In this document: piece after piece, positions 22,091 through 42,036 of the stretch
How positions within the stretch are numbered: position 1 is the first letter of the stretch
Layout: each line of letters begins with the position of its first letter
NCBI GenBank assembly: GCA_937927735.1
Contig: CALBRZ010000002.1
Location: forward strand, 37,800-101,799
DNA length: 64,000 nucleotides
Direction of reading: 5' to 3'
DNA from: an uncultured Planctomycetales bacterium
GTDB taxonomy: Bacteria > Planctomycetota > Planctomycetia > Pirellulales > S012-138
Made by a program: the position numbers and the translations under genes
Notes under the pieces: model-generated
Database searches by the model: none
What the model was told of the DNA's origin: nothing
Seen by the model: the letters and a program-made list of their open reading frames with translations, nothing else

Positions 22091-22148
22091 CGAATGCCGG
22101 GAGCCGGCGGGTGCCAAGGCGGCCACCGGCTCCGGCTGGGGGCCACTA

Positions 22149-22178: not shown

Positions 22179-22282
22179 TCGTCCGGACGAAACCACCGCC
22201 GGCGCAAAATCGGTTGATTCCACCAGCCAAAACGTAAGTACAATCTAGATTCCTTGTTGGTCCGCGTGGCTGAGCGGCCCTG

Positions 22283-22402
22283 GCTGGGTGCCACTGGCTC
22301 TGCCAGTGCGAGTGCGGAACCGGCGCCGGGTTGCACTGGCTTTGCCCGTGGGGAACAGGTGGCAGCAACGAGCTTCGTTGTGGCCCGCACAGCGGACTCT
22401 AC
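22283..22402 (+). repeat. copy C of the roughly 110-nt repeat (with an internal degenerate core at 22328-22354)
   Basis: Core gtgccactggctctgccagtgcg at 22288-22310 and 3' box cacagcggactctac at 22388-22402. Same orientation as copy A. Ends about 117 nt upstream of the glnS start. Confidence 0.6.
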
Positions 22403-22518
22403 CAATGCTGCCGGGCCGAACCACAAACCAACCGAGGCCGCGGACCAGAAACGTACACGCCCGCTGGATAGCCGTTTAACGATTCACCACTTTGTTCGCG
22501 CAGGAGTCGCGAAACATC

Positions 22519-24260: not shown

Positions 24261-24571
24261 AGCGGGCGAGCCGTGCGAAGGAACGGGTTGAGCGGCCGGT
24301 CCGGGCGGCGCGGGGCTTGCGCATGCGCGTTTTTCAGCAATTACGCGGGGGTAAAGGGGTTACAACCGCCGCTGGCCGATTTATAGTGGAAGTTCCCTTC
24401 TAGCTCGCTTCCGTGGCGAATCCCCCGAACCGGTTTCGCCAGCGGTGCGTAAACGATAGCGTTGGATTGCCTGCGCGGGCGTTCGCCCCGCGGGGGTCCT
24501 GTACATTGGTCGTGGTGGGCGCGGTGCTGCACGTTTCGGCCCGGTCCCGCCGGTTGCTGCTCCCCGACGAG

Positions 24572-25501: not shown

Positions 25502-25615
25502 GCGCTCCGCCGCGGGGATGGCACCGCCGCAATCGGGACGTGCCGTTGAACAACACATCTAGCCAACATCATCGGGGATGCCACAGCCGTCCCCGGAGCC
25601 CGTTCTGGATTGGCC

Positions 25616-27532: not shown

Positions 27533-29298
27533 ATCGCACACTCCGCAACAAGGCGATCTACCTGGTGCTCATGGCGTTGTTGCTGGTGCCGCTCTCGTGG
27601 CTGGGCCAGCCGGCCACGGTGGCCACCGAAAGCGACTCCAGCGGCGGCAGCTCCGGCGGCACCCTGGCCCAGTTGCGCGCCGAGTACGATCTGAGCCACG
27701 GCAACCTGGGCGAGATCGACCCCACCAGCGAAGCCCTCAAGTTGGCCCTCTTTGGTATGCGGGGCCTGGCCGCGACCATCACCTGGGAGCAGGCCCGCGA
27801 ATACCAGATGAAAGAGGACTGGACCAACCTCGACCTGAAGCTTGAGCAGATCGCCCGCCTGCAACCGCACTTTGTGATGGTCTGGCGGCACCAGGCCTGG
27901 AACCTGTCGTACAACGTTTCGGCCGAGTGGGACGACTACCGCGACCGGTATTACTGGGTGATTCGCGGTCTGAAGTACCTGATGCGCGGCCAGCCGTACA
28001 ACCGGCACGATACGCGGCTGGTGTGGGACGAAGGCTGGTTCATCGGGCAGAAGATCGGCAAGTCCGACGAATACCGACAGTTTCGCATCCTGTTCCGCGA
28101 GAACGCCATTAACCCGATCCATCCCGAGGATCGTCCGGCTCGCGACGAGGACCGCGACAACTGGCAGGTGGCCCGTCAGGCATTCCTCCGCGGCCTGCAA
28201 ATGTACGAACGCGGCGACGAGCTGCGTGGTGCCAACCCGCTGATCTTCTTCTCTGAGCCGTCGCGTTGCTCGATCCGCTTTGCCGCGGCCAAGGAAGAAG
28301 AAGGCGACTTCGAAGGTGACCGGCCCCGCTCGCGCTGGGAGCGTGCCCGCGAGGAATGGCACGAGTTCACCCATCGCAGCATCCCGGCCGCCGGCATGGC
28401 CAATGTGTTCATCACCGTGGCCGGCTTTGAGGAGTATGCCCGCGAGCAGGCGGCCGCCGAACAGGAGTTCTACGCACTGCAGCCCGGCTTGCAGCAGCAA
28501 CTGGAGGCCCAGAAGCGGGCTGCCCTGACCGACGAAGAACGCCAACTGCTGGAAACGCCCGCGGACTCGCTCTCCGACGAGCAGATCGAGGAGCAGGGTA
28601 AGCTCCGGCAGCGCATTCAGGTGACGCTGCAAGACTTCATCAACGCCTTGCCCGAGGACAAACGCCCCCTGGCCAACGAGTTGGCCAAGAAGGTGAATCT
28701 GGCCCGGTCGCTGGCCCAGGCAGGCTCGGCCGCGCGGTACACGGTGAACTACGACTACTGGGAGAAACGCTGCGAGGCTGAGCAATCGGTACTGGTGCGC
28801 ACCGTCGATGGCCAGGAAGTGGTGGGCGTGGAGCAGAGCAATACGCTGCTGCTGCCGATTGCCGCCGCCACCGACGAAGAAGAACGCGAAACCACCATTC
28901 GCGGCCTGGTGGGCGGTGTGGCTGCCTGGAACCCCTCGGGCGAGATTCGCATCCTCACGCCCAACGGGGATGTGGCGATCATCCAGGCCGAGGGCGTGCG
29001 TGAAGTGATCGACCTGGGCGTGGGGGCCCGCCGCGACCTGTATCACGCCTACCAGGCGTATCGCATCGATCCGTTCACGGCCAAGCCGTACTACGAAACG
29101 GCCTTTCAGAAGTGGCGGAAGATTCTCGATGCTTACCCGGTGCTGGTGGGCGACGGCGACATCAACGACGATCTGACGATGGCCAGCCGCCGTTACGACG
29201 TGTCGTTGCAGCGCCGCAACCTGCCGTTCCCCAAGGACGATTACATCCTCAACGACGTGCTTGAGGCGCGGCCGCCCGATCCGCCGATTGGCGAGTAA
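27529..29298 (+). CDS. membrane-anchored hypothetical protein (589 aa), translationally coupled to the ABC-2 permease
   Basis: N-terminal anchor MNRTLRNKAIYLVLMALLLVPLSWL, then a Trp/Arg/Glu-rich soluble region (WEQAREYQMKEDWTNLDLKLEQIARLQPHFVMVWRHQAWNLSYNVSAEWDDYRDRYYW). I recognise no family. Confidence 0.65.
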   Translation: MNRTLRNKAIYLVLMALLLVPLSWLGQPATVATESDSSGGSSGGTLAQLRAEYDLSHGNLGEIDPTSEALKLALFGMRGLAATITWEQAREYQMKEDWTNLDLKLEQIARLQPHFVMVWRHQAWNLSYNVSAEWDDYRDRYYWVIRGLKYLMRGQPYNRHDTRLVWDEGWFIGQKIGKSDEYRQFRILFRENAINPIHPEDRPARDEDRDNWQVARQAFLRGLQMYERGDELRGANPLIFFSEPSRCSIRFAAAKEEEGDFEGDRPRSRWERAREEWHEFTHRSIPAAGMANVFITVAGFEEYAREQAAAEQEFYALQPGLQQQLEAQKRAALTDEERQLLETPADSLSDEQIEEQGKLRQRIQVTLQDFINALPEDKRPLANELAKKVNLARSLAQAGSAARYTVNYDYWEKRCEAEQSVLVRTVDGQEVVGVEQSNTLLLPIAAATDEEERETTIRGLVGGVAAWNPSGEIRILTPNGDVAIIQAEGVREVIDLGVGARRDLYHAYQAYRIDPFTAKPYYETAFQKWRKILDAYPVLVGDGDINDDLTMASRRYDVSLQRRNLPFPKDDYILNDVLEARPPDPPIGE

Positions 29299-29327: not shown

Positions 29328-30065
29328 TTGAGTACCACGTGGACTGTCGCCGCCACCCCGCCGGAGTTGCCGCCAGGGCACGTACACGTGTGGCGTGCCC
29401 GGCTCCAGGGGCGGCGCGACCGCATCGCCCTCTGGGGCTGTCTGGACGACGAAGAACGCCGCCGGGCCCAGGCTTTCTTTCGCCCCGAGCACGGCGAACG
29501 GTTTGCCTCCGCCCGGGGGCTGTTGCGTCGGCTGGTGGCCGCGTACACCGGCTTGTTACCGCGCGAGGTCCGTTTTACCGCCGGCACGTACGGCAAGCCG
29601 GAGCTTCTGACGCCGCCGGTGCCGCTGGCGTTCAATCTTTCGCACTCCAAGGACTTCGCCCTGGTGGCGTTTGCCCGCAGCGGCCGGCTGGGCGTGGATG
29701 TCGAGCAGGTACGCACGCTTTCCGATGCGCTGTCGCTGGCCGAGCGGAACTTTGCCGCCGACGAAGTGCAGTGGCTGAGTTCCACGCCGCCTGAGCAGCA
29801 GCCGGAGGTATTCTTCCGCATCTGGACCCGCAAGGAAGCAGTGCTCAAAGCCGTGGGGGCGGGCCTGTGGATCGATCTGCACGGCTTCAGCGTGGTGCCG
29901 GTGAAGGGGGCCGGCGAGCTGCTGCCGATGGCCCTCACGCCTGGCGCCGAGCCGGATCCCTGGCGCTGGTACGATTTGGAGCCGGCCGCCGGCTTCCAAG
30001 GCTGCGTGGTGTACGATGAGGATGTGACGTCGCTGGCTACCTTTGAAGCCGCCGACCTGGGCTGA
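29328..30065 (+). CDS. 4'-phosphopantetheinyl transferase, Sfp type
   Basis: FNLSHSKDFALVAFARSGRLGVDVEQV and FFRIWTRKEAVLKAVGAGL (the PPTase G-x-D and W-x-x-KEA-x-x-K motifs). TTG start. Confidence 0.85.
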   Translation: MSTTWTVAATPPELPPGHVHVWRARLQGRRDRIALWGCLDDEERRRAQAFFRPEHGERFASARGLLRRLVAAYTGLLPREVRFTAGTYGKPELLTPPVPLAFNLSHSKDFALVAFARSGRLGVDVEQVRTLSDALSLAERNFAADEVQWLSSTPPEQQPEVFFRIWTRKEAVLKAVGAGLWIDLHGFSVVPVKGAGELLPMALTPGAEPDPWRWYDLEPAAGFQGCVVYDEDVTSLATFEAADLG

Positions 30066-30475
30066 TCCAGGGACACGCTGGCTGTCAGTTGGATGTGACC
30101 ATCTCAGTTGAGGCCGCGGTGCGGACCACCCACGAACAGATCGAACCACGTGGGTACGGTTCGAAGCATTGGCGAAGGACTGGTGGCGAAGCCTTCAAGA
30201 GGTCTAAGCCGCTCGTGCCGCGGTTCCGCACGCCGTGTGCCGTTTCAGCTCCACCGGCCGCAACCGTAAGCGGGCTACTTGCTCGTCGCAGGTGCGATGG
30301 CCGGCTGCACATGCCCGGTCTAGCACGATCGCTTGCTGTCGTGGCTGAGTGATTGCCCCGTTGCGGTGCCCAAGCGGGTGACCGATAATTTTACGTAAGT
30401 ACCGAAATACCCGATATTCCGGCGCCGCGACCGTGGCGGGCGTCGACACATGCGGGGCAGAAAGCAGACGGGCCG

Positions 30476-31399
30476 ATGGCTGAGCGTCACGCCGAACTCG
30501 ATACGCGCATCTCCATCAGCACGCCGGAGAATATCGCGTTCGATTACCGCATCGCCGGGCCTTTCCAGCGGTTGCCGGCTTACCTGCTCGACCTGCTGAT
30601 CCGCAGCACCGTGTTCTTCGTGGCGGCGATCGCGGTGCTGGTGGTCGCCGGCTGGGAGATCGGCCTGGCCTGGGCCCTGATCCTGTTTTTTGCTCTGGAT
30701 ATCTTCTACGGCGGCTTCTTTGAAACCGTGTGGAACGGCCAGACGCCGGGCAAGCGGATCCTCAACCTGCGCGTGGTCACCATCCAGGGCGAACCGATCA
30801 GCCCTTACCAGGCCGTGCTGCGAAACATCCTGCGGATCGCGGATGGGTTCCCGTACATCGGTGTCGAGACGGCCGGCTTCCCGCTGTTCCAGGTCGGCCT
30901 GTTTTCCATGATGGCCAGCCGCCGTTATCAGAGGGTGGGCGATCTGGTGTGCGGCACGATCGTCGTGTCGGAAGAACAGCAATCGGCCTTCGGCGTGCTG
31001 CAAACGGTGCCGCCCGAGGCCTTGGCCCTGGCCGCCGAGATTCCCGCCGGTTTCGAGGTGACCCGCTCGTTGGGCCTGGCCCTCAGCACCTATGCGCACC
31101 GCCGGTCGATGTTCGGCTGGGCGCGACGCGAGGAGATCGCCCGGCACCTGGGCGAGCCGCTGCGGCAGCGGCTAGGGCTGACGCTGCAACAGATCGGCAG
31201 TTACGACACACTGCTGTGCGCGCTGTATCATAAGACATTTGTCGAAACGCGCCCGGGGCAGGAGTTGGCCGGCCACACGCCCGCCTCGCCGTTTGCCCCG
31301 GCCCCCCTTGCTCCGCCCGGCCCTCCGTGGCAAACGTGGCCGCAGCCGCCCGAGCAATACGCGTATGGCGGTTATGGTCCGCCCGGCGGTGCCCGGTGA
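30476..31399 (+). CDS. RDD-family membrane protein
   Basis: FQRLPAYLLDLLIRSTVFFV...WNGQTPGKRILNLRVVTIQGEPISPYQAVLRNILRIAD matches the RDD domain pattern. Pro-rich C-terminal tail. Confidence 0.85.
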   Translation: MAERHAELDTRISISTPENIAFDYRIAGPFQRLPAYLLDLLIRSTVFFVAAIAVLVVAGWEIGLAWALILFFALDIFYGGFFETVWNGQTPGKRILNLRVVTIQGEPISPYQAVLRNILRIADGFPYIGVETAGFPLFQVGLFSMMASRRYQRVGDLVCGTIVVSEEQQSAFGVLQTVPPEALALAAEIPAGFEVTRSLGLALSTYAHRRSMFGWARREEIARHLGEPLRQRLGLTLQQIGSYDTLLCALYHKTFVETRPGQELAGHTPASPFAPAPLAPPGPPWQTWPQPPEQYAYGGYGPPGGAR

Positions 31400-31565
31400 T
31401 TGTTTCAGCACACAAGTTCAGGCGGCTGCCGTGCATACGTCGCAGGCGAGGTATCTGCACTCGTTGCGATCGCGCAGGCGTGTGGCCGCCATGCCGCGGA
31501 TCAGCTAGGGCGACTACGTACGCAGATGCGGTCGGTTTCCTCGTAGCCTCGAATCATCAGCAATC

Positions 31566-32606
31566 ATGAAAGTTGCCGAGCTGCTGGCCCATCGTCAGAG
31601 CAATTGGAGCGAGTTGCAGCATTTGTGCGCGCAGATGGAAACGAGGTCCCGCCGCAAGATTCCGCCCGAGATGCTCACGCGGATGGCGTCGCTTTACCGT
31701 TCGGCCTGTGCCGACTTGGCTTTGGCCGACGCCTACCAGCTTCCGCCCAGCACCGTGCGGTACCTGCACCAACTGGTGGCCAACGCTCACAATCAGCTTT
31801 ATCGCAGCCGCAGCTTCAACTACAGCGGCTGGCTGCGGAGTCTGTTTGTCGAAGTGCCGCAGCGGCTGTTTCATGACAACGCCCTGCGGGCTTCGTTCCT
31901 GCTGTTCTTTGGGTTGTTCATCGCGTCGTACTACCTGGCGTCGAACAATCGCGCGCTGGCTGAGATCCTGGTGGGCGAAGATTTCATCTCCGCCCTTGAA
32001 AGCATGTACGCTGCGCCGCCCAATAGTTCCGGCCTCTCGATGGGGCTTGCCCGAACCGGCTTCTACATCCAGCACAACGCCACCATCGGTTTTCGCTGCT
32101 TTGCGATGGGCGTGTTGCTATTGGGGCTGGGAGGGCTGTTCGAAGTGAGCTTCAACGGCATCGTGCTGGGCGGTGCATTCGGCTACATGGCCAGCCTGCA
32201 AACCTCGGCCAAGGAGCATTTTTTCGAGTTCGTCACGGCGCACGGGCCGTTCGAGCTGACGGCGATCGTGTTGTCGGCGGCGGCCGGCATCCGGCTGGGC
32301 TTTTCCATCGTCCACACGCGAGGACTAACGCGGCTGGCCTCGCTGCGGCTGGCCGGACGCGAAACGCTGCCGGTGATGATGGCCGCCGCGATCCTGTTTT
32401 GCCTGGCGGCGTTCATCGAAGGTTACATTTCGCCCTCGCAACTGCCTTATGTGGTAAAAGCCAGCGTGGGGGCACTGTCGTGCCTGGCATTGATGGTGTA
32501 CTTCGTGCTGCTGGGCTTGCCGACGGGGCCGCGGCCGGCTCCCGCCGACGAATCCGCCGCAGCCGCCGGCACCTGGGAAGCCGCTTTAGTCGCCGACGAA
32601 GATTGA
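31566..32606 (+). CDS. stage II sporulation protein M-like (DUF95) integral membrane protein
   Basis: N-terminal helical region (ASLYRSACADLALADAY) followed by an HNATIGFRCFAMGVLLLGLGGLFEVSFNGIVLGGAFGY...FVTAHGPFELTAIVLSAAAG core typical of the SpoIIM/DUF95 family. Confidence 0.8.
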   Translation: MKVAELLAHRQSNWSELQHLCAQMETRSRRKIPPEMLTRMASLYRSACADLALADAYQLPPSTVRYLHQLVANAHNQLYRSRSFNYSGWLRSLFVEVPQRLFHDNALRASFLLFFGLFIASYYLASNNRALAEILVGEDFISALESMYAAPPNSSGLSMGLARTGFYIQHNATIGFRCFAMGVLLLGLGGLFEVSFNGIVLGGAFGYMASLQTSAKEHFFEFVTAHGPFELTAIVLSAAAGIRLGFSIVHTRGLTRLASLRLAGRETLPVMMAAAILFCLAAFIEGYISPSQLPYVVKASVGALSCLALMVYFVLLGLPTGPRPAPADESAAAAGTWEAALVADED

Positions 32607-32698
32607 TATTGCCCGCGGCGGCGAACAACCGCCGCGGCACCGGTGACCTTTCATCCATACGCAATGATCCGGCGCGAATCGCCGGCCACACGTTCCCT

Positions 32699-33598
32699 AT
32701 GCAGCTTGACGTTACCCGCATCACCATTCGCGAGCGAGGGATCTTCGATCTGCTCGATCTCGGCCTGCGCGTGATGTGGGTGTATGCCGGGCCGCTGCTG
32801 GCGGCTGCGGCCCTGGGCATCCTGCCGCTGATGCTGCTCAACACGCTATTGCTGGCGCCGATTGTGCCGGACGCATCGCAGTACGACCTGAACGACTACT
32901 ACGAGGAGTCGATCTACACTGAAGACGTGGCGTACTACCTGTACTGTGCGCTACTGCTGGTGATGATCGAAGTGCCGCTGGCGACGGCGCCCATGACACT
33001 CTACCTGGGCCGGGCCGTGTTTGAAGAACGCCCCTCGTTCCGCAGCTTGTGGCAGAACTACTGGGAGATGTTTCCGCAGTTGTTCCTGTCGCGGGTAGTG
33101 CTGAGAACGCTGTGGCTGACGCCGTCCATCCTGGTGCTCTTGAGCAACGAACCTGGGATGATCTTCCTGGGGACGTTGTTTTTGCCGCTGCCGTTTCTGG
33201 TGCGGCCGTTCACGACCGAGGTCATCCTGCTGGAGCGGAACCCGATCCGGGCACGGAGCTCCGATACCGTCAGCACGTACCGCCGCAATACGATGCTGCA
33301 CGCCGGTTCGTTTGGCGATTTGTTTGGCCGCTGGTTCGTGGTGCTGCTGCTGACCGGGTTCTGGTTGCTGACTCTGTGGGCAGCCACGACAGAAGTGTAC
33401 AAGCTGCTGACGGGCGTAGAGGCCAGCGAGTATTTCGATTACGCCTGGTTGTTTCCCGCGGTGTTGTGGTTCGTGGTCGCCTACGCCACCGTGGTTCGGT
33501 TTTTGAGCTACCTCGACCTGCGCATCCGCCGCGAAGGCTGGGAGGTAGAGCTGCGCATGCGGGCGGAAGGTAGCCGCCTGGCACGGCAGCTCACGTGA
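32699..33598 (+). CDS. polytopic membrane protein of unknown function
   Basis: Start trimmed to ATG 32699 (MQLDVTRITIRERGIFDLLDLGL). About six hydrophobic helices. The C-terminal YLDLRIRREGWEVELRM resembles the Y-x-DLR-x-R-x-EG-x-(D/E) tail seen in membrane proteins that accompany MoxR/DUF58 clusters (from memory). Confidence 0.7.
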   Translation: MQLDVTRITIRERGIFDLLDLGLRVMWVYAGPLLAAAALGILPLMLLNTLLLAPIVPDASQYDLNDYYEESIYTEDVAYYLYCALLLVMIEVPLATAPMTLYLGRAVFEERPSFRSLWQNYWEMFPQLFLSRVVLRTLWLTPSILVLLSNEPGMIFLGTLFLPLPFLVRPFTTEVILLERNPIRARSSDTVSTYRRNTMLHAGSFGDLFGRWFVVLLLTGFWLLTLWAATTEVYKLLTGVEASEYFDYAWLFPAVLWFVVAYATVVRFLSYLDLRIRREGWEVELRMRAEGSRLARQLT

Positions 33599-33693
33599 TC
33601 CGTTTGCAGGTGGTGATCCGGTTTGTCGTCAACGCGGTGAGCTGAAAGAGGTAACCAACCGCCCGTCACCGACCGCGGCCAATGTGATCCATC

Positions 33694-34497
33694 ATGATGA
33701 AAGCGCGCGAGTTCACCCGATGGCTGCTGCTGATGCTGGCTCTGTTGACGTGGCCAGCCGGGCAGCGCTGCGCGCTGGCTGACCTGACGCCCGACGGGGC
33801 GGTGGAACTGGGCCGGGAAACGCTTTCTAAGGGAGTGCTGAATCGTCACCCCTGGTACGACAGCAGCACCGACGATGTGAAGCTGGTGCCGCTCAGGCAA
33901 CAAGCGCAGTCGCAATCATCGAGCTGGGACTGGGATTGGGAGTGGCCCGACTGGACCTGGGAGTTCAACCTCTTTGGCTCCACGTTTTCGGTGAATCTGT
34001 TCACGCTGTTGATGTGGGCCGTGGCGCTGATTCTGGCGTTCTTCCTGGTCCGCTACTTGATCCGGCTGTACGAACGCCGCGAGATCGAAGATGCCAACGG
34101 CGATGACGAAGAAGCCGTCCAGACCACCGACGCCGATCGGGTTGAAGCCCTGCCGGTTGTGGTCAAACGCGAGGTGAGCGATCTGCGCGGCGAAGCCCGC
34201 CGCCTGGCCGACGCGGGCCGGTACTCCGAAGCCATCGTGTACTTGTACAGCCATCTGCTGGTGCAGTTGGACCGCCACCAGGCGATCCGGCTGGCCAAGG
34301 GCAAGACCAATCGTCAGTATCTCGGCGAGGCCGCGGCGACCAGCGGCGACCTCGGGCCGATTGTGGAACGCACGATGACGGCCTTTGAGGACGCGTACTT
34401 CGGCCATCACGAACTGCCGGCAGCCGCGTTTGAAGCCTGCTGGGGCGACGTGCAGCGGCTCGATACCATCGTCCGGCCGCAGGAGGTGATGGTATGA
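33694..34497 (+). CDS. DUF4129 domain membrane protein
   Basis: Signal or anchor, then a Trp/Asp-rich stretch SSWDWDWEWPDWTWEF, one TM helix, and a C-terminal domain (GRYSEAIVYLYSHLLVQLDRHQAIRLAKGKTNRQYL...FEDAYFG) typical of DUF4129. Confidence 0.75.
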   Translation: MMKAREFTRWLLLMLALLTWPAGQRCALADLTPDGAVELGRETLSKGVLNRHPWYDSSTDDVKLVPLRQQAQSQSSSWDWDWEWPDWTWEFNLFGSTFSVNLFTLLMWAVALILAFFLVRYLIRLYERREIEDANGDDEEAVQTTDADRVEALPVVVKREVSDLRGEARRLADAGRYSEAIVYLYSHLLVQLDRHQAIRLAKGKTNRQYLGEAAATSGDLGPIVERTMTAFEDAYFGHHELPAAAFEACWGDVQRLDTIVRPQEVMV

Positions 34498-35720
34498 AAC
34501 CGCGGATCACCTGGGCCATGGCAGCGCTGGCATTGATGGTCGGCGGCTGCGGTTTGGACGCCACCGAACTGGAAACCGAGTACGGCTCGCGGATGTCGAT
34601 ACGGGGCGGCAACAGCAGCGTGAACGGCACCGGCGTGCTGGCCGAGATGTACGAAGCCCAGGGCAATACCGTCAGCAGCGCGCGGCGGTTGTCGCCTCGG
34701 GTGGAACATGCCGACACGATCGTCTGGTTTGTCGAAGACGGCAACCCGCCGAGCGAGGCCGCTATCGACTGGCTGGACAACTGGCTGTATTGGCCGGACC
34801 ACACGCTGGTCATCGTGCTGCGCGATTTCGACGCGGCGCCCTTGTACTGGCGGAAGGTGCTGTCGCAAGCTCCGGCGGCCCAGCAGCAGGAGATTCTCAA
34901 CCGCCAGGCGGAAGCCGACACCGAGTTTGCCCGGCTGCGGCTTTCGTTTCCGCCGGGCGTGAGCGATTGGACGTGGTTCGAATACGACTCGACCAATAAG
35001 CCCCGCCAGGTGACGACTCTGGCCGGCGATCCTCAGTGGATCCGCGGCGTCGATCCGTCCAAGGTGGAGATCGAATTGCACGGCCGGTTGGTGCCCGACC
35101 TGGCCGAGGACCGCATCCTGCTGCGTTCGGAAGACGATCCCATCGTGATCGAGCGCAATGTGCATGGCAACAAGGTGATCGTGGTCGCCAACGGTTCGTT
35201 CCTGCTCAACCTGCCGCTGGTGAACAAGGAACACCGCAAGCTGGCTGGCGCGTTGATCAACGCATCGACCTCAGGGCAGGGCGACGAGGTGGTTTTCCTG
35301 GAAGCCGGCGGCGACGTGGCCGTGAGCGATAGCGACGAGCCCGAGGGGCTGCCCTCGGCCTGGCGCTACCTCAATACGCCGCCGCTCAGCTACCTGCTGC
35401 GCTCGATCATCTTCTTTTCGATGGTGATGATCTTTGCCATGTGGCCGATCTTTGGCGTGCCCCGCGAGGAGTCGCAGCGGCACCTGATGGACTTTGGCCG
35501 GCATGTCGAAGCGCTGGGCAGGCTGCTGGCTCGTACCCGTAACGCCCGCTACGCCTGGAGCCGGATCGCGCTGTATCGCCAACTGACCGAAGGTTCGCGC
35601 CGCCCCGGTGAGCCATCTTCGCAGCCGCCAAGCGGTGGTTCCGAAGTGACGAGTGCCGCAAGCACGAGCCGACAACCGCCGGGCGAAGCCACGCCGCCGG
35701 CGAGCGGACTCTACGGATAA
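34494..35720 (+). CDS. DUF4350 domain protein (GldG/ABC-auxiliary-like fold), lipoprotein-like N-terminus
   Basis: AGGAGG at 34481-34486. ATG overlaps the upstream stop (ATGA). N-terminus MKPRITWAMAALALMVGGCG. VNGTGVLAEMYEAQGNTV...TIVWFVEDGNP is DUF4350-like. There is a late TM helix and a Ser/Pro-rich tail. Confidence 0.75.
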   Translation: MKPRITWAMAALALMVGGCGLDATELETEYGSRMSIRGGNSSVNGTGVLAEMYEAQGNTVSSARRLSPRVEHADTIVWFVEDGNPPSEAAIDWLDNWLYWPDHTLVIVLRDFDAAPLYWRKVLSQAPAAQQQEILNRQAEADTEFARLRLSFPPGVSDWTWFEYDSTNKPRQVTTLAGDPQWIRGVDPSKVEIELHGRLVPDLAEDRILLRSEDDPIVIERNVHGNKVIVVANGSFLLNLPLVNKEHRKLAGALINASTSGQGDEVVFLEAGGDVAVSDSDEPEGLPSAWRYLNTPPLSYLLRSIIFFSMVMIFAMWPIFGVPREESQRHLMDFGRHVEALGRLLARTRNARYAWSRIALYRQLTEGSRRPGEPSSQPPSGGSEVTSAASTSRQPPGEATPPASGLYG

Positions 35721-35796
35721 TGGGCCAACGAACACACGCCGCCCCTGGATAAATAAAGAACGCCCCCCATCGACTCTCAGGGAGAGCCGCAAATCC

Positions 35797-37287
35797 ATGA
35801 ACGAAGCATTCCGACCGCCGGCGGGCGGGGACACGATCGAGTTCCGCTGCCATCAGTGCGGCAAGCTGCTCCGCTCGGGCGGGGCGTTCGCCGGCAAGCA
35901 ATCCAAGTGCCCCAACTGCGGCGCGATGGTCGATATTCCCGCCGCCGATGCCGGGCAGCCGCCTGGGCCGCCTTCGGGGCCGATGCCCGATCAACCGGTG
36001 CCAGGCATGCTGCAAGGGACGCCCGGCTATGCGCAGCCCTGGGGGCAGACACCACAGCCCAGTCCGGTGGAGCAGGGCGGATACGGCCAGGGCCCCTGGG
36101 CCAACCCGGTGGGGCCTGCTGCTGCGCCTCCGCCTGTCCCTCCGCAGACGCCACCACAAGTGCCGCCGCCCACGTCCGGTGCGTACCCCGGCGGAGCGTA
36201 TCAACAGCCGTATCCCGGCCCGGTTCAAGGCACGCCTGTCGGCATGCCCCTGGGCACACCTGTGGCCGCGGCCCCGCAGCAACGTTTTGACCGATTGCCC
36301 AAGATTTCGACTCATAGCCCCGGTGGCGGCCGCGAAACGCCGATTCGCCGGGTCTTCGAGCGGATCATGGCCCAGGTCCGCAAGATCTACGTCGGCCAGG
36401 ATGAGCTGGTGTTGGGCAGCCTGGTGGCGCTGTTCTCCGGCGGTCACGTGCTGATCGAGAGCTTCCCCGGCCTGGGCAAGACGCTCTTTGTGCGCACGCT
36501 GGGTCAGGTGCTGGGCTGCAAGTTTGGCCGCATTCAATTCACGGCCGACTTGATGCCTTCAGACATTACCGGCTCGCCGCTGTTTGACATGAAGACGCAG
36601 GAGTTCCGGTTCCGGCCGGGCCCGGTGTTCACGCAACTGCTGCTGGCCGACGAGATCAACCGCTCGCCGGCCAAGGCCCATGCCGCGCTTTTGGAAATCA
36701 TGCAGGAGCGGAACGTCACCGTCGATGGCGTCACGCACAAGCTCGAACGGCCGTTCCTGGTACTGGCCACGCAAAACCCGATCGAGTCGGAAGGCACCTA
36801 CAACCTGCCCGAGGCTCAACTCGACCGCTTCATGTTCAAGCTGATCGTGGAGTATCCGCACGAGCAGGAAGAAGCCGAGATCCTGCGGATGCACAGCCAG
36901 CAGGTGGACGTGGAGCGGCGGTTCCGCGAGGAACTGGAGACGGTCACGTCGCCTGAGGAGATCGTCCAACTGACCGAGGAGTGCGGCAAGGTTCGCGTCG
37001 ACGACAAGCTGGTCGACTACATCAACAAGCTGGTCCGGCTCACGCGGCAGTGGCCGCAGTTCTACATGGGCGCTTCGCCCCGGGCGGGTATTACGCTCAT
37101 GCAGGGGGCGCGCACGTTGGCGGCGTTCCGGGGACGCGATTACGCCGTGCCCGACGACGTGGTGGAACTGGCCCTGCCGGCGCTGCGGCACCGCGTGGTG
37201 CTGACGGCCGAGGCCGAGGTGGAAGGCCGCCAGGTGGACGAAGTGCTCACGCAAATGATCCGCACCGTGGAGGTTCCCCGGCTTTGA
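35797..37287 (+). CDS. MoxR-family AAA+ ATPase with an N-terminal zinc ribbon and a Pro/Gln/Gly-rich linker
   Basis: AGGGAGAG lies upstream of ATG 35797. Zinc ribbon CHQCGK-x16-CPNCG. Low-complexity residues about 49-162. MoxR core IYVGQDELVLGSLVALFSGGHVLIESFPGLGKT (Walker A), LLADEINRSPAK (Walker B), ATQNPIESEGTYNLPEAQLDRF. Confidence 0.9.
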   Translation: MNEAFRPPAGGDTIEFRCHQCGKLLRSGGAFAGKQSKCPNCGAMVDIPAADAGQPPGPPSGPMPDQPVPGMLQGTPGYAQPWGQTPQPSPVEQGGYGQGPWANPVGPAAAPPPVPPQTPPQVPPPTSGAYPGGAYQQPYPGPVQGTPVGMPLGTPVAAAPQQRFDRLPKISTHSPGGGRETPIRRVFERIMAQVRKIYVGQDELVLGSLVALFSGGHVLIESFPGLGKTLFVRTLGQVLGCKFGRIQFTADLMPSDITGSPLFDMKTQEFRFRPGPVFTQLLLADEINRSPAKAHAALLEIMQERNVTVDGVTHKLERPFLVLATQNPIESEGTYNLPEAQLDRFMFKLIVEYPHEQEEAEILRMHSQQVDVERRFREELETVTSPEEIVQLTEECGKVRVDDKLVDYINKLVRLTRQWPQFYMGASPRAGITLMQGARTLAAFRGRDYAVPDDVVELALPALRHRVVLTAEAEVEGRQVDEVLTQMIRTVEVPRL

Positions 37288-38708
37288 TCACGCTGGCCCT
37301 GCTGCTCGTGCCGCCGCTGGCCGCGCTGATCGCGCTGGCCAGGCTGGGGCGGATCTATCCCACGCGGCTCCTGGCGGGGCTGGCGGCGCTGCCCATTGTG
37401 CTCAGCGTGCCGGGGATCTTCTGGGAGTCGCTCCATCGGCCGCTGATCCAACTGCGGCTGGGCGGCTGGGAACTGGAGGTCGGCGCGGTGCTGCTGGTCG
37501 GGCTGGCCGTGGCCGCGCTGGCGGCCGTCGATGCCTTCTCGCTGCCCAAGCGCGACACGTTTTCGGCCGAGCGGCAGATGGGCCGCGTGGCCTCGCTCAA
37601 GCAGAAACACGACGTCGAGCTGACGCTGCTCAACCATTCCAGCCGCGACTGGACGGTCAACGTCCGCGACGGCGTGCCGCCCGACCTGCATCCCACGCCG
37701 CAACAGTTCGCGCTGCGGGTGCCTGCCCGCAGCCGGGCCACCAAACGTTATCAGCTCCGCAGCACGCGCCGCGGGGCGTTTGAACTGACGCAGGTTTTTC
37801 TGCGGGCGGTGAGCCGGCTACGGCTCTGGCAGCGGCTGCTGTCCTATCCGGTGAAAAACACGCTGCACGTGTACCCGGACATGAAGCAGCTCTCGGAGTA
37901 CGCCGTGCTGGCGCGGCTCAACCGGCTGAACCTGCTGGGCGTACGGCGCACTCGGCGGATCGGGCAGGACAACGAGTTTGAACGTCTGCGCGATTACATC
38001 GTGGGCGACAATTACAAGCACATCGACTGGCGCACCACGTCACGTCGCCGCAAGCTCACGGTGAAGGAGTTCCAGCGGAACCAAAGCCAGACGCTGGTCT
38101 TCATGGTCGATTGCGGCCGCATGATGACCAACCAGGCCGAGAACCTGTCGCTGCTCGATCATGCCTTCAACGCCATGTTGATGCTCTCGTACGTGGCGCT
38201 CAGTCACGGCGACGCGGTGGGCCTGATCTGCTTCTCCGACGAGATCCATACCTACGTGCCGCCCAAGGCGGGCCGCAGCCAGATGAACCGGCTGCTGCAC
38301 GCCTCGTTCGACCGGTTCCCGCGGCTGGTCGAGTCGCGCTACGACCAGGCGTTCTTGTATCTCAACGCCCATTGCCGCAAACGCTCGCTGGTGATCTTCA
38401 TCTCCAACGTGATCGACGAGGTGAACTCGCACCAGATCCAGCGGTACCTGGCCAACATGGTCGGACGGCATTTGCCGCTGGCGGCGCTGCTCCGCGACCG
38501 CAGCTTGTTCAAGGCGGTCGACGAGCCTGCGCCCTCGGGCGAAGCGCTATATCGCGCGGCGGCCGCGGCCGACATTCTCATCTGGCGGCACCAGGTGTTG
38601 GCCGATCTGCAGGCGCGGGGCGTGCTTTCGGTAGATACCTTCCCCGAGGATCTGACCGCGCCCTTGATCAATCGCTACCTGGATGTGAAAGCGCGTCATC
38701 TGCTGTGA
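37284..38708 (+). CDS. DUF58 domain protein with N-terminal TM helices
   Basis: TTG start overlaps the moxR stop (TTGA at 37284-37287). Hallmark GQDNEFERLRDYIVGDNYKHIDWRTTSRRRKLTVKEFQ, and a VWA-like degenerate fold region LVFMVDCGRMM. Confidence 0.9.
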   Translation: MITLALLLVPPLAALIALARLGRIYPTRLLAGLAALPIVLSVPGIFWESLHRPLIQLRLGGWELEVGAVLLVGLAVAALAAVDAFSLPKRDTFSAERQMGRVASLKQKHDVELTLLNHSSRDWTVNVRDGVPPDLHPTPQQFALRVPARSRATKRYQLRSTRRGAFELTQVFLRAVSRLRLWQRLLSYPVKNTLHVYPDMKQLSEYAVLARLNRLNLLGVRRTRRIGQDNEFERLRDYIVGDNYKHIDWRTTSRRRKLTVKEFQRNQSQTLVFMVDCGRMMTNQAENLSLLDHAFNAMLMLSYVALSHGDAVGLICFSDEIHTYVPPKAGRSQMNRLLHASFDRFPRLVESRYDQAFLYLNAHCRKRSLVIFISNVIDEVNSHQIQRYLANMVGRHLPLAALLRDRSLFKAVDEPAPSGEALYRAAAAADILIWRHQVLADLQARGVLSVDTFPEDLTAPLINRYLDVKARHLL

Positions 38709-39345
38709 GCGGCGTCACCCGGCCGCCGTCCACTCGTAGTACCTGCGCAGCCAGGCGGCGCACTTGCGCCAGATGGTGTGTCACCAGCAGCGTCGGCAGC
38801 GGATACTCGGCCAGCACGCGTTCCAGGTAGGTGATGATCCGGTCTTGCAGCGGCTGATCGAGGGCCGAGAGCGGCTCGTCAAGCAGCAACAGCTCCGGGC
38901 CTCGCAGCAGTGCCCGACCTAACGCCACCCGCTGCCGCTGGCCGCCGCTGAGCGTGTGCGGCTGCCGGGCAAGCAGGTCGTCGATCTCGAGCATCTCGAC
39001 CACGCGGTCAAAGCTCAGATGCCCCGAGCCACACCAGCGCGTGCCGTATTGCAGGTTTTGCCGCACGCTCAGGTGAGGGAACAGGCACAGGTCCTGAAAC
39101 ACCATGCCGATGCCGCGTTGCTCGGGCTTCACGTGGATACTTCGCTCGGTATCGCACAAGACGCGGTCGCCCAGGCGGATGAACGCCTGACGCGGCCGTA
39201 GCAGCCCCGCCAGAATCGACAGAATGGTGGTCTTGCCGCTGCCCGAGGGACCTACCAGCGCGGTGACTCCGCCGGGCACGGTGAACTGGGCCCGGAGTTG
39301 AAAACCGGTCGGGTAATCGTGCTGGCAATCGAAGCTGAGTACCAT
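38668..39345 (-). CDS. modC: molybdate ABC transporter ATP-binding protein (short form, no TOBE domain)
   Basis: Walker A GPSGSGKTT, LSGGQRQRVALGRALL, LLLLDEPLSALD. Last gene of the modA-modB-modC run. Confidence 0.8.
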   Translation of the reverse strand: MVLSFDCQHDYPTGFQLRAQFTVPGGVTALVGPSGSGKTTILSILAGLLRPRQAFIRLGDRVLCDTERSIHVKPEQRGIGMVFQDLCLFPHLSVRQNLQYGTRWCGSGHLSFDRVVEMLEIDDLLARQPHTLSGGQRQRVALGRALLRGPELLLLDEPLSALDQPLQDRIITYLERVLAEYPLPTLLVTHHLAQVRRLAAQVLRVDGGRVTPLTADDALSHPGSD

Positions 39346-39360
39346 GGTGCGGCCCGCCGG

Positions 39361-40056
39361 TCAGTCGTGGATGGTGCCCAGTCGAGCGCGGCCGCGGCGC
39401 TCCAGATACTCGCCCACCGCCAGCGCGCTGGCGGCCAGAGCGATGGAAACGATCACAATCCCCCGGGCTTGCTCCAAGCCGCCGGGCGTTTCCAATTCGC
39501 TGTACACCAGCAGCGGAATGGTTTGCGTCACGCCGGGGATGTTGCCGGCGATCATGATCGTGGCGCCGAACTCGCCCAGGCTGCGGGCGAACGCCAGCAC
39601 CACGCCGGCCACGATACCGTGGCTGGCCAGTGGCAGCGTCACCGTGCGGAAGGCGTTCCACCGCGAGGCTCCCAGCGTGCGTGCTGCCTGCACCAGCCGC
39701 GGATCCACGCCGCTGAACGCCAGGCGGATCGAGCGAACCATCAGCGGAAAGGCCGACACCGCCGCGGCTAGAGCCGCACCCTTCCAGTCGAACACCAGAC
39801 GTAAGCCCAACCAGCGTTCCAGCGGTTCGCCCAGCCAGCCGTGCCGTCCGAACAGCACCAACAGCAGGTAGCCGGTCACCACCGGCGGCAACACCAGCGG
39901 CAGGTGCAGCAGCGTTTCCACCAGGCTTTTGCCGCGAAATTGTCGCCGCGCGAGCAGCCAGCCCAGCCCGATGCCCAGCGGCAAGCTGGCAGCCACGGCA
40001 ACCGTGGCCACGAGCAGGCTCAGCCGGATGGCATCGAGTTCGGCGGCGGTGAACAT
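39361..40056 (-). CDS. modB: molybdate ABC transporter permease
   Basis: MFTAAELDAIRLSLLVATVAVAASLPLGIGLGWLLARRQFRGKSLVETLLHLPLVLPPVVTGYLLL and ARTLGASRWNAFRTVTLPLA (EAA loop) match the ModB/CysTW type. Confidence 0.9.
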   Translation of the reverse strand: MFTAAELDAIRLSLLVATVAVAASLPLGIGLGWLLARRQFRGKSLVETLLHLPLVLPPVVTGYLLLVLFGRHGWLGEPLERWLGLRLVFDWKGAALAAAVSAFPLMVRSIRLAFSGVDPRLVQAARTLGASRWNAFRTVTLPLASHGIVAGVVLAFARSLGEFGATIMIAGNIPGVTQTIPLLVYSELETPGGLEQARGIVIVSIALAASALAVGEYLERRGRARLGTIHD

Positions 40057-40062
40057 CGCGGT

Positions 40063-40896
40063 TCAATCGTGGGCAGCGTTGGTCGATGGTGGTGCCGGCT
40101 CGAAACCGTGCCGGCGAAAGACGGCGGCCGCTTCGTCGGAGGTCAGGTAGTCGTACAATTGCCGCGCGGCAAGCCGCGCCGGCTTGCGATCGATCAGCAC
40201 CAGCGGATAGCGAATCGGTTCGTGTGTGCTGACATCGAGCGTGGCAACCGTTTCTACGGCGTCGGAGCTAAGCGCATCGGTGGCGTAGACGATCGCCGCC
40301 TCGGCTTCGCCGCGTTCGACGTACGTCAGGGCGATGCGTACGTCCTGCCCTCGCACGATCTTCTTCTGCTGGACCAAGGGTTGCATAAGGCCGGCGGCTT
40401 CCAACGCTTCGCCGGCGTACATACCGGCCGGAACCTGCTCGCCGGCCAGAGCCACAAACCGCACGCGGTCGCTCAGGAGGTCTTCCAGGCTGCGGACGCC
40501 GGCCGGGTTGCCACGCGGTACGACCAGCACCAGGCGGTTCTGTAGCAGCGTCTTGCGATCGGCGGCCAGGTTGGCCTGCGAAATCGCATCGGCCCAGTGC
40601 TCGCTGGCCGAGAGATACAAGTCCGCCGGCGCACCCGCCAGAATCTGTTGTGCCAGCGCATTGGATGGCCCGGCGGCGAGCCGTACGGTAAGGCCGGTGG
40701 CGCTGCGAAAACCTTGCACAGCTTCGTCCACGGCGTCGCGTGTGCTGGCGGCCACCAGTATCGTGAGCGGTTCCGCCGTTTCACCACCGGTTGCGTTCCC
40801 CTCGGTGGTCGATGCGCTGGCGCCGCAGCCGGCAGCTATGAGCGCCGACAGCGTGAGGATCACGCCTGCGAACCGAGGACATGAGAGGAACATCAT
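40063..40896 (-). CDS. modA: molybdate-binding periplasmic lipoprotein
   Basis: Lipobox LIAAGC. LTILVAASTRDAVDEAVQGFRSATGLTVRLAAGPSNALAQQILAGAPADLYLSAS matches the ModA pattern. Confidence 0.9.
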   Translation of the reverse strand: MMFLSCPRFAGVILTLSALIAAGCGASASTTEGNATGGETAEPLTILVAASTRDAVDEAVQGFRSATGLTVRLAAGPSNALAQQILAGAPADLYLSASEHWADAISQANLAADRKTLLQNRLVLVVPRGNPAGVRSLEDLLSDRVRFVALAGEQVPAGMYAGEALEAAGLMQPLVQQKKIVRGQDVRIALTYVERGEAEAAIVYATDALSSDAVETVATLDVSTHEPIRYPLVLIDRKPARLAARQLYDYLTSDEAAAVFRRHGFEPAPPSTNAAHD

Positions 40897-40941
40897 CGTG
40901 GTGCGCTGCCAAGGTTTCCGGGAAGAGGTTCGGCCGGCACT

Positions 40942-42036
40942 TTAGGTCACGCTGGTGAGCGAGCCGGTTTGCCGGACCTGGTAGCCGGGCATGGCTCCCA
41001 GAAGTTCGCGCCACGCGGGCGAACGCACCAGCTTGACCAAGGCGGTCAGACGCGGATCGCCTTCCAGCGCAGCCGGGTAGCACAGGTCGTAGCTTTCCCA
41101 GCGGATCGGCACAAAGCCCAAGCCCGCTTCTTCACTGACCAGGCGAATGCACACGCCGGCATCGGCCCAGCCGGAGCGAATGGCCGCGGCCACCGTGCGA
41201 TGGTCGGCGGCGATGCGACGCCAGGGGCGAGGACGGCCGAACAGTTCGTCGAGACACTGCCGGGCCCCGGAGCCGGGCTCGCGCGCCACCCAGCGGAGCC
41301 TGGCACGCACCAGCGCGTGTAATCGGGGCGGCTTGGTATGCGGGCTGAGGGCGACTCCTTGTTCCCAGTCGGCCAGTCGCAGCAGATGAAAGCCGGGACC
41401 CAGCGCTTGCAACACGGCTCGTTCGTTGCCGGTGCTCTCGGCCGGACCCAAATGAACGCCAGCCACGTGCACCCGGCCCGCCTTAAGCAGCTCGAGTGCC
41501 TGGTGACTGGAGCGGGCCAGCGCAATCATGCGAAACGGTGTTTGCCGCTGGTACTCGGCGGCCAGAAGCGATGCCGCCGGATCGCAACCGGCAAGGACCA
41601 ACGTGGCGCTGGCCGTGTGCTGAGCCGTGGGGGTAGGTTGCCAGCCCGGCGGGCCCGAACCGCCAGGAGCGGCCGGGGCGAGGCCGTCGTGTGCCACCAG
41701 ACCTTGGCAGGTGGTTTCGGCCGGATAGAGCCACTGTTGCCCTGCCACTTCGGCCAACCAATAGCGGCAGGCCTGTTGTGCGGAGTGCGGGGAACTTGGT
41801 TCCCAGGCCCAGCGGGCAGAAGGCGTGTCGGCCGCGGCTGGTTCGAACAACTCCTCGACCGTGCAGCCCAGGACGCGCGCCAGGGCTAGGGCCGCCGCGA
41901 CGCTAGGCACCAGGCGACCGCCTTCAATGGCGCTGACCGCCGTGCGCGAAATGCCGGCGCGAGCGGCCAGTTCACCCTGCGACCAGCCTTGCGCCTGGCG
42001 AAATTGACGAACCCGATTGTGCGCGCTGTGTGTCAT
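40942..42036 (-). CDS. XRE-family HTH regulator fused to a periplasmic-binding-protein-like (PBP, molybdate/anion-binding type) domain
   Basis: N-terminal HTH VRQFRQAQGWSQGELAARAGISRTAVSAIEGGRLVPSVAAALALARVLGCTVEELF and a C-terminal PBP-like domain. Lies 45 nt upstream of modA on the same strand. Confidence 0.8.
   Translation of the reverse strand: MTHSAHNRVRQFRQAQGWSQGELAARAGISRTAVSAIEGGRLVPSVAAALALARVLGCTVEELFEPAAADTPSARWAWEPSSPHSAQQACRYWLAEVAGQQWLYPAETTCQGLVAHDGLAPAAPGGSGPPGWQPTPTAQHTASATLVLAGCDPAASLLAAEYQRQTPFRMIALARSSHQALELLKAGRVHVAGVHLGPAESTGNERAVLQALGPGFHLLRLADWEQGVALSPHTKPPRLHALVRARLRWVAREPGSGARQCLDELFGRPRPWRRIAADHRTVAAAIRSGWADAGVCIRLVSEEAGLGFVPIRWESYDLCYPAALEGDPRLTALVKLVRSPAWRELLGAMPGYQVRQTGSLTSVT

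Follow-up and report, generated by a model that had tools for sequence, protein, structure and literature searches.

A seven-gene MoxR-DUF58 membrane cluster of an uncultured planctomycete as a candidate system for envelope remodelling

Introduction

The closest described relatives of the locus studied here are gene neighbourhoods that place a MoxR AAA+ ATPase beside a protein with a VWA domain. The MoxR-vWA-YebA/TGL operon is very common, and its function is unexplained (Zhang and Aravind 2012). Neighbourhoods that combine DUF4350, MoxR and vWA genes, or SpoIIM, vWA and MoxR genes, have also been discussed, and an "Ig-like plus vWA" architecture was given for the MoxR partner in the DUF4350 clusters (Makarova et al. 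2015). For Mycobacterium chelonae, a table with the M. tuberculosis orthologues lists Rv3689, Rv3691, Rv3692 (MoxR), Rv3693 (DUF58), Rv3694c (SpoIIM) and Rv3695 (RDD). Here we describe a cluster of seven genes in a 64,000-nucleotide stretch of DNA (hereafter the window) from an uncultured Planctomycetales bacterium (contig CALBRZ010000002.1), which encodes, in this order, an RDD-family membrane protein (g1), a SpoIIM-like protein (g2), a polytopic membrane protein (g3), a DUF4129 protein (g4), a DUF4350 protein (g5), a MoxR ATPase (g6) and a DUF58 protein (g7).

In Pseudomonas aeruginosa, PA2875 and PA2874 are co-transcribed with tgpA, the product of which is critical for viability and has its transglutaminase domain mapped to the periplasm. 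PA2875 is presumably the MoxR ATPase and PA2874 the DUF58 protein, an assignment that the TgpA paper does not state. Transglutaminases of the TgpA type end in a DUF4129 domain.

We propose that the seven genes of the window form one functional unit, a planctomycete MoxR-DUF58 membrane system in which a chaperone pair acts on membrane proteins for envelope remodelling, a proposal that we hold to be evenly balanced between right and wrong. Its observed basis consists of the family identities, the intact ATPase motifs, the linkage in three phyla and the gene fusions.

Conserved linkage in Planctomycetota

Seven forward-strand open reading frames (ORFs) were confirmed between positions 30476 and 38708 by the ORF listing and the inspection of start codons, and the product lengths of g3 to g7 are the same in independent public gene calls on other assemblies of this organism (Table 1). 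Six of the seven products score above the Pfam gathering cut-offs for the families that the first-pass annotation, made from the sequence letters, had named in the same order; g3 is the exception and is polytopic. An NCBIfam scan of the seven proteins adds nothing specific. Kyte-Doolittle hydropathy places transmembrane (TM) segments or signal-like N-termini in six products and not in MoxR, in agreement with the same annotation.

One genome per GTDB species was scanned with a DUF4350 alignment, and 218 loci encode a g5 relative. The best 80 of these 218 loci (33–65% identity in g5) were kept and annotated with the seven window proteins, and the 48 loci with enough sequence on both sides were used for counts of gene order. 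All seven genes occur in the window's order and strand in 30 of the 48 loci, while 4 further loci are without just one detectable gene of the MoxR/DUF58 pair; one locus (L035) carries g3-g2-g1 inverted. Only the closest relative (L007) shares the genes that flank the cluster in the window. Because the seven-gene order recurs in 30 of the 48 loci and the flanks are shared with that relative only, the arrangement is beyond chance, and because the order recurs while the flanking genes differ, the cluster is under selection for linkage. The cluster is built from three modules: [RDD, SpoIIM-like, g3], [DUF4129, DUF4350] and [MoxR, DUF58]. Two apparent fusions, RDD::SpoIIM (L003) and MoxR::DUF58 (L061), were discounted, as the neighbouring genes are fragmented by frameshifts. 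Cluster genes are split or fused by frameshifts in L003, L030, L057, L061, L066 and L071, for which long-read assemblies are suspected.

For g5, g3 and g7, the nearest relatives all belong to Planctomycetota, mostly to Pirellulales. A cross-phylum search through DUF4350, by word index, by exhaustive search of the representatives and by the GTDB scan, returned only relatives labelled Planctomycetota, bar one contig, and tblastn of g5 against a plasmid collection returned nothing. The exceptional contig (L063) is labelled Candidatus Nealsonbacteria and bears a full planctomycete-type cluster with 41% g5 identity, which is probably a binning error of a metagenome-assembled genome.

The same families are linked in other phyla

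Loci from other phyla came from a tblastn search with the MoxR core as query; the plasmid collection that was searched includes some whole chromosomes. In Nonomuraea gerenzanensis (Actinomycetota), the order is a polytopic GPDPase_memb-like protein, a DUF4129-like ORF, DUF4350 (104 bits), MoxR, DUF58 (99.9% probability against g7 in hhalign), SpoIIM on the opposite strand and RDD. Of these, the DUF4129-like ORF is only weakly assigned (hhalign probability 41.6%, E 2.7e-4). Nocardia farcinica carries a variant of the same set with no detectable DUF4350, and a Streptomyces plasmid carries DUF4129, a hypothetical gene, MoxR and DUF58. Catenovulum adriaticum (Gammaproteobacteria) has RDD, SpoIIM, a 515-amino-acid (aa) protein, DUF4350, MoxR and DUF58 in the window's order. 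Plasmids of Rhizobium and Paracoccus (Alphaproteobacteria) have DUF805, DUF4129, DUF4350, MoxR, DUF58, SpoIIM and RDD, with the DUF4129 and DUF4350 matches of Rhizobium at or slightly under the Pfam cut-offs. The DUF805 membrane genes stand at the place of g3 in these alphaproteobacterial loci (L093 2884-3955 and L096 3505-3945) and are a possible functional replacement. Five of the six best plasmid-collection MoxR matches inspected in such clusters also carry membrane genes, and the Streptomyces plasmid has only DUF4129. The MoxR of a Halogeometricum plasmid was set aside, as it lies outside any such cluster.

The co-location of the seven families as in Rv3689-Rv3695 (the moxR2 locus) is thus found in the window, in Nonomuraea with a weak DUF4129, in Catenovulum and, from the literature, in Mycobacterium. 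The families are the same, namely a polytopic TM protein, DUF4129-like, DUF4350, MoxR, DUF58, SpoIIM-like and RDD proteins. The two types differ in order and orientation, with SpoIIM and RDD placed after DUF58 and divergent in actinomycetes, and the window's MoxR has an added zinc ribbon and Pro-rich linker. In M. chelonae RNA-seq, a block of ~15 contiguous genes is down by 6–9 log2 units; since a deletion or a regional effect could account for the drop, the block serves here as a source of gene content and not as a sign of co-regulation. In Catenovulum, Rhizobium and Paracoccus, the same set of genes is already annotated in RefSeq. The first-pass annotation had pointed to similar neighbourhoods in other phyla, for which the loci in Actinomycetota and Pseudomonadota now stand, and had held that none has a demonstrated function; full-text literature searches found no functional study of the gene set. 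Its description of an undescribed system was overstated in view of the RefSeq annotation, the Rv3689-Rv3695 table and the neighbourhoods of Makarova et al. (2015): the window's copy belongs to an already known gene set and is not a new one.

The DUF58 protein is the VWA partner of MoxR

The cluster had initially been described as lacking a VWA partner. In contrast, g7 scores above the Pfam VWA_2 cut-off of 27 bits, many of its homologues carry PF13519 in precomputed annotation, and an Ig-like sandwich precedes a region of alternating alpha/beta structure in the AlphaFold2 (AF2) model; the VWA partner is therefore present as the DUF58 protein itself. The predicted local distance difference test (pLDDT) value is ~90 over residues 1–200 and ~95 in the sandwich (~90–200), for which Foldseek returns TRAP subunits, complement MG domains and a CARDB domain, while a sequence search of g7 against the Protein Data Bank (PDB) gave no meaningful match. 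The architecture of g7 is the Ig-like plus vWA arrangement of Makarova et al. (2015). The piece that is absent is a second VWA gene of the BatA/B type. As in the Bat/aerotolerance and MRP-type MoxR operons, an AAA_3 MoxR gene is directly followed by DUF58; in contrast to the Bat/aerotolerance operon, the cluster is without the TM-VWA proteins BatA/BatB and without the TPR proteins BatC/BatD, and modABC is next downstream. A profile search of the window found no second MoxR gene and no second VWA gene of the DUF58 type.

The metal ion-dependent adhesion site (MIDAS) of g7 departs from the canonical DxSxS motif with a strand-4 Asp. The DxSxS position reads D276-C-G-R-M-M, which is invariant or near-invariant in 50 planctomycete sequences; at the same position, Nonomuraea has DTGRT, Rhizobium has DSGRL and Catenovulum has DSGKR, so that a D-x-G-[RK] motif is present in DUF58 proteins of three phyla. 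The strand-4 Asp of Nonomuraea is an Asn (N375) in planctomycete DUF58. The vWA metal site has been defined by two aspartates (Kaur et al. 2020); by this definition, the D-x-G-[RK] subfamily keeps the aspartates in part and has lost the serines. With the serines lost, ligand binding by this VWA domain may be non-canonical. Among the products of the cluster, DUF58 is the best conserved, with 58–80% identity versus ~40–45% for g5.

The MoxR ATPase retains its catalytic residues

g6 contains AAA_3 and AAA_lid_2 with intact Walker, sensor and arginine-finger residues, adjoins the VWA-fold gene g7, and matches PDB entry 2r44 (E 2.4e-75). All of 53 orthologues keep the residues K228/T229 (Walker A), D285/E286 (Walker B), N327, R344 and R429 unchanged, and g6 is therefore expected to be an active ATPase. 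The first P-loop residue is Ser and not Gly in 52 of the 53 orthologues. No RavA or ViaA family match was obtained with Pfam or NCBIfam, and the best ATPase family is AAA_3. The N-terminal zinc ribbon, a CxxC-x16-CxxC motif, and the Pro-rich linker behind it had escaped the first annotation. The ribbon is present in few of ~55 MoxR orthologues (L007, L074, L075, L078 and L080), and most of the ~55 are 314–370 aa long.

Single-pass proteins, fusions and the transglutaminase link

Hydropathy and charge distribution give g4 a signal-like N-terminus, an acidic Trp-rich outside segment, a TM segment (101–123) and the C-terminal DUF4129 domain, such that the DUF4129 domain is predicted to be cytoplasmic and the acidic segment to be outside. 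g5 has a conserved lipobox-like pair (G18-C19), an alpha/beta domain (~45–290), a TM segment (298–322) and a helical tail with a conserved post-TM motif FG...DFGxH (SDFGxH); its alpha/beta domain is predicted to be periplasmic and its conserved tail cytoplasmic. In the AF2 model of g5, 10-residue blocks across ~51–280 average pLDDT values of 76–97, mostly above 90. The top Foldseek matches are the class-I glutamine-amidotransferase-like structures 3soz and 2gk3 and GH42 trimerisation domains, which on this model fit the earlier assignment of DUF4350 as flavodoxin-like/GldG-like (Makarova et al. 2015). A sequence search of g5 against the PDB returned no meaningful match.

DUF4129 and DUF4350 form a single chain in two representatives from different 50%-identity clusters (P0323 and P0361), and one such fusion lies in the context of a possible RDD gene, SpoIIM, g3 and the fusion. 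In the complete genome of Catenovulum, a g3-like N-terminal half is fused to a g4-like architecture in the 515-aa protein, the C-terminal half of which has the g4 layout of TM, outside loop, TM and helical domain. A further link is provided by P0286, a g5 paralogue of 759 aa on a metagenomic planctomycete contig (L091 8001-10280), where its gene lies between DUF4350 and MoxR of an eight-gene cluster. In this protein, the DUF4350 domain is separated from the shared C-terminal TM segment and tail by an insertion that comprises a TgpA_N fragment and a transglutaminase core. The fusions and this insertion therefore tie the cluster to the MoxR-DUF58-TgpA operon.

The MoxR-DUF58-transglutaminase operons (PA2875-PA2874-tgpA, the YebA type, the Bifidobacterium PFNA core and a three-gene MoxR-DUF58-transglutaminase operon of Listeria) place MoxR and DUF58 beside a membrane protein, as does the window. 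In contrast to these operons, the window has a stand-alone DUF4129 protein, a non-enzymatic-looking DUF4350 protein in the periplasmic position and, in addition, RDD, SpoIIM-like and g3 proteins. Pfam gives no Transglut_core match in the seven proteins, and no relative of the P0286 transglutaminase region is encoded in the 64-kb window. The window's cluster thus belongs to a wider MoxR-DUF58 group that centres on single-pass or polytopic membrane proteins with an extracytoplasmic domain.

Three polytopic proteins

g1 has 2–3 TM segments and a soluble C-terminal region with a Pro-rich tail end by hydropathy. The RDD genes that adjoin MoxR-DUF58 in Nonomuraea, Nocardia, Catenovulum and Rhizobium are matched by a profile built from planctomycete g1 orthologues. 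g2 aligns over its full length with actinobacterial and proteobacterial cluster members; its soluble N-terminal domain of ~100 aa is DUF8413 in public annotation, and DUF8413 plus SpoIIM are annotated on orthologues. SpoIIM serves as a scaffold in the membrane to which cell-wall hydrolases are recruited, and the SpoIIM homologues of non-sporulating bacteria, which adjoin vWA and COG0714 genes, must act otherwise (Makarova et al. 2015). g2 belongs to the same Pfam family as SpoIIM of the Bacillus SpoIID-SpoIIM-SpoIIP engulfment complex; in contrast to that complex, no SpoIID or SpoIIP homologue is encoded in the window's cluster.

g3 has more than 1200 homologues, none of which carries a Pfam domain, and two conserved motifs, MQLDxTRIxIRERG at the N-terminus and YLDLRIRREGWEVEL at the C-terminus. 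A Pfam search of g3 and 22 homologues gave no direct match to GPDPase_memb or DUF7847. A profile of 22 g3 homologues aligns with the Nonomuraea polytopic protein (hhalign probability 94.3%, E 1e-7, 252 columns), which lies at the equivalent position and matches PF10110 (GPDPase_memb) and PF25231 (DUF7847). In the 515-aa protein of Catenovulum, the N-terminal half likewise aligns with g3 (92.4%, E 5e-7). These alignments identify g3 as a probable distant relative of the GPDPase_memb/DUF7847 family, linked indirectly through the Nonomuraea protein.

Proposed mechanism

MoxR and DUF58 would act as a chaperone and VWA co-chaperone pair, DUF4129 and DUF4350 as two single-pass proteins, and RDD, SpoIIM-like and the GPDPase_memb-like g3 as a polytopic membrane platform. 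On the predicted topology, the cytoplasmic side would carry the DUF4129 domain, the tail of DUF4350, the MoxR hexamer and, anchored in the membrane by three TM helices, the Ig-VWA part of DUF58, while the large amidotransferase-like DUF4350 domain would be on the periplasmic side. DUF58 may dock on the cytoplasmic DUF4129 domain or on the DUF4350 tail, and MoxR would spend ATP to assemble the single-pass proteins within the polytopic platform or to switch their conformation. The outcome would be control over an envelope-remodelling activity in the periplasm; the sister systems have a TgpA-type transglutaminase as that periplasmic domain. By analogy, the TgpA and SpoIIM parallels are inferred to point to envelope remodelling. 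The envelope-embedded AAA+ machine of the first-pass annotation is plausible and close to this mechanism.

Several observations weigh against this proposal. Eight of the 48 loci contain g(1-)3-g5 without MoxR/DUF58 within 4.5 kb, and six are without g1 and g2 upstream of g5, five of them also without g3; the modules are thus separable and may not always act together. The topology is drawn from hydropathy and the positive-inside rule alone, and the archaeal Ig-vWA proteins were called "likely secreted" (Makarova et al. 2015). The Foldseek matches of g5 are all weak (E 4e-4, TM-scores of 0.25–0.40), the VWA region of g7 has low AF2 confidence, and classical metal-mediated peptide binding may not apply to a VWA domain that is missing the MIDAS serines. 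Pfam and a profile search find no enzyme domain in the window's own cluster, which leaves "remodelling" without an identified chemistry.

A broader version of the proposal is an ancient machine that remodels the envelope from the inside out, is spread over at least three bacterial phyla with a three-gene archaeal core, employs a metal-independent D-x-G-R VWA domain and includes the TgpA operons as one branch. In it, a ring of MoxR in the cytoplasm would act through DUF58 to switch the DUF4129 and DUF4350 proteins mechanically within the polytopic platform, and so control an activity outside the cytoplasm. We advance it tentatively and consider it doubtful.

Alternative explanations

The archaeal arCOG01314 clusters, predicted to encode a complex for secretion or for membrane remodelling, combine a COG0714 MoxR and an Ig-like plus vWA protein with a DUF4350 protein that carries a signal peptide and, at its C-terminus, a TM segment; all three are found in the window. 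In the model that Makarova et al. (2015) gave for these clusters, GldG-like DUF4350 and the membrane proteins would form the conduit of a novel protein secretion system that MoxR assembles or gates. arCOG01314 has HHpred similarity to GldG (99.24%; Makarova et al. 2015), the Catenovulum DUF4350 weakly matches ABC_transp_aux (GldG family), and most products of the window's cluster are membrane or extracytoplasmic by hydropathy. However, the archaeal clusters add S-layer/Ig-like membrane proteins (arCOG02884 and others) where the window has RDD, SpoIIM-like, g3 and DUF4129, and Pfam detects no S-layer or Ig-like arCOG02884-type family among the seven products. Pfam and NCBIfam likewise detect no secretin, channel-forming ATPase or substrate gene in the cluster, MoxR ATPases are not known for powering translocation, and the neighbouring ATP-binding cassette (ABC) genes are not conserved with the cluster, which together render a secretion system unlikely.

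Membrane-proximal quality control, in which the VWA protein recruits, MoxR unfolds and a transglutaminase-like peptidase encoded elsewhere cleaves (Zhang and Aravind 2012), draws on the same kinship as our proposal: the nearest sister operon is MoxR-DUF58-transglutaminase, a planctomycete relative holds the transglutaminase-bearing DUF4350 paralogue inside the cluster, and the ATPase motifs are intact. However, neither the cluster nor the rest of the 64-kb window encodes a peptidase or transglutaminase. The transglutaminase of P0286 is on the side of the signal-peptide-led DUF4350 domain, outside the cell and away from MoxR, and that of TgpA is periplasmic as well. We regard degradation as improbable.

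The three polytopic proteins could instead be transporters that MoxR and DUF58 mature, in a unit for ion or small-solute homeostasis. One RDD protein is a reported cation/proton antiporter. No transporter family signature is found by Pfam or NCBIfam, however, and the conserved periplasmic DUF4350 domain and the transglutaminase link would be left unexplained, which makes this explanation very unlikely.

A MoxR-vWA "ternary" conflict system, in which the ATPase-VWA pair sets the threshold of an effector, could call on the use of such pairs in these systems (Kaur et al. 2020) and on a weak bpMoxR match in g6 (29.6 bits, cut-off 27), which lies beneath the far stronger AAA_3 match; yet Pfam finds no third component (VMAP, inactive STAND, FtsH or beta-propeller) or effector domain in the seven proteins, PADLOC matches none of them, the same genes recur uniformly from species to species and DUF58 is strongly conserved, so that a role in defence is hardly credible. 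Equally hard to credit is a mere juxtaposition of two or three unrelated operons, such as a membrane-protein operon and a generic MoxR-DUF58 pair, to which the eight loci without a nearby MoxR/DUF58, the inverted g1 to g3 of L035, the divergent SpoIIM and RDD of actinomycetes and gaps of 76–166 nucleotides (nt) that could hold internal promoters would lend themselves, but which is opposed by the co-location of the same families in three phyla despite reordering and differing flanks, by the g3-like/g4-like and g4/g5 fusions and by the membrane genes in five of the six inspected plasmid-collection loci.

Layout, flanking genes and transcription

The features of the cluster are listed in Table 1. 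The start/stop overlaps of 4 nt (ATGA at 34494-34497 between g4 and g5, and TTGA at 37284-37287 between g6 and the TTG start of g7) and the AGGAGG ahead of the DUF4350 gene are all present as first annotated. The remaining intergenic gaps are 166 (g1-g2), 92 (g2-g3), 95 (g3-g4) and 76 nt (g5-g6), and a scan for sigma-70 promoters and terminators returned none in the gaps of the cluster. Rfam and tRNA scans over the whole window, which has a GC content of ~64%, were empty.

Table 1. Features of the seven-gene cluster, with positions in the window
Feature	Position (nt)	Strand	Description	Support
g1	30476-31399	+	RDD-family membrane protein, 307 aa	Pfam RDD 74.4 bits
g2	31566-32606	+	SpoIIM-like (DUF95) polytopic protein, 346 aa	Pfam SpoIIM 95.1 bits
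g3	32699-33598	+	Polytopic membrane protein, 299 aa; ATG start, ORF opens at 32399	No Pfam match
g4	33694-34497	+	DUF4129 protein, 267 aa	Pfam DUF4129 38.3 bits, residues 184-250
AGGAGG ribosome-binding site	34481-34486	+	7 nt 5′ of the g5 ATG	Sequence letters
g5	34494-35720	+	DUF4350 lipoprotein-like protein, 408 aa	Pfam DUF4350 38.3 bits
g6	35797-37287	+	MoxR AAA+ ATPase, 496 aa	Pfam AAA_3 206.9 bits, AAA_lid_2 74.4 bits
g6 zinc ribbon	35848-35919	+	C18-C41, CxxC-x16-CxxC	Pfam Zn_ribbon_Com 24.2 bits, cut-off 22.9
g6 linker	35797-36350 (ribbon plus linker)		~140 aa, 27% Pro, between ribbon and AAA_3 core	
g6 AAA_3 core	~36445-36837	+	Followed by AAA_lid_2	
g7	37284-38708	+	DUF58 protein, 474 aa, TTG start	Pfam DUF58 94.4 bits, VWA_2 28.3 bits
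g7 domains	~38094-38396 (VWA)		Three N-terminal TM helices; Ig-like beta sandwich, residues ~90-200; DUF58 core motif; VWA	

The cluster is bounded upstream by a phosphopantetheinyl transferase gene, which is followed by a gap of 410 nt (30066-30475) before g1, and downstream by a convergent molybdate-type ABC (modABC) operon. The 410-nt gap is non-coding and contains an AT-rich patch at ~30383-30420 (GATAATTTTACGTAAGTACCGAAATACCCGATATTCC), which makes it a candidate promoter region. The downstream genes (38668-42036, reverse strand) encode an ABC ATPase, a permease, an SBP_bac_11 binding protein and a regulator with helix-turn-helix (HTH) and PBP_like domains, and the 3′ end of the molybdate-type ATPase gene overlaps that of the DUF58 gene by 41 nt (38668-38708). 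Further upstream, 24413-29298 encodes an ABC ATPase and two proteins with no Pfam match, one a membrane protein of 640 aa and the other a secreted-looking protein of 589 aa; the genes of these two overlap by 4 nt. These ABC-type genes were rejected as members of the system, since they are kept only in the closest relative (L007). They are preceded by adjoining glutamyl-tRNA and glutaminyl-tRNA synthetase genes (20528-24234), named from their translations alone.

Three runs labelled METATRANSCRIPTOMIC WGS (X10, X11 and X13) were rejected as transcript data, as they behave as DNA, with a flat depth of ~20 over 19 kb, both strands and contigs of up to 136 kb. In two RNA-Seq metatranscriptomes of bioreactors, sparse contigs are identical to parts of g1 to g6 at a depth of 3–7 versus ~17 for the upstream gene. 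One contig (31278-31576) bridges the entire g1-g2 gap, and another (29990-31020) runs from the upstream gene through the 410-nt gap into g1. These contigs are weak signs of low-level transcription and of g1-g2 co-transcription, with DNA carry-over possible in the same runs.

Implications

MoxR ATPases, for which few substrates are known, rank with the most widespread AAA+ proteins; the cluster described here is one of their most conserved contexts. This type of cluster also occurs in Mycobacterium tuberculosis (Rv3689-Rv3695) and on plasmids of plant-associated Rhizobium. The interest lies in what this widespread MoxR context does, and the planctomycete copy adds little beyond the other copies. 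The leads obtained are the separable modules, the D-x-G-[RK] signature of DUF58, the fusions of DUF4129 to DUF4350 and of g3 to a g4-like region, and the evolutionary link to the TgpA operon, which show which protein pairs matter first and point to genetically tractable hosts. If remodelling from the inside out is true, the cluster would represent a new class of envelope remodelling device, of which the TgpA transglutaminase operons would be a specialised branch.

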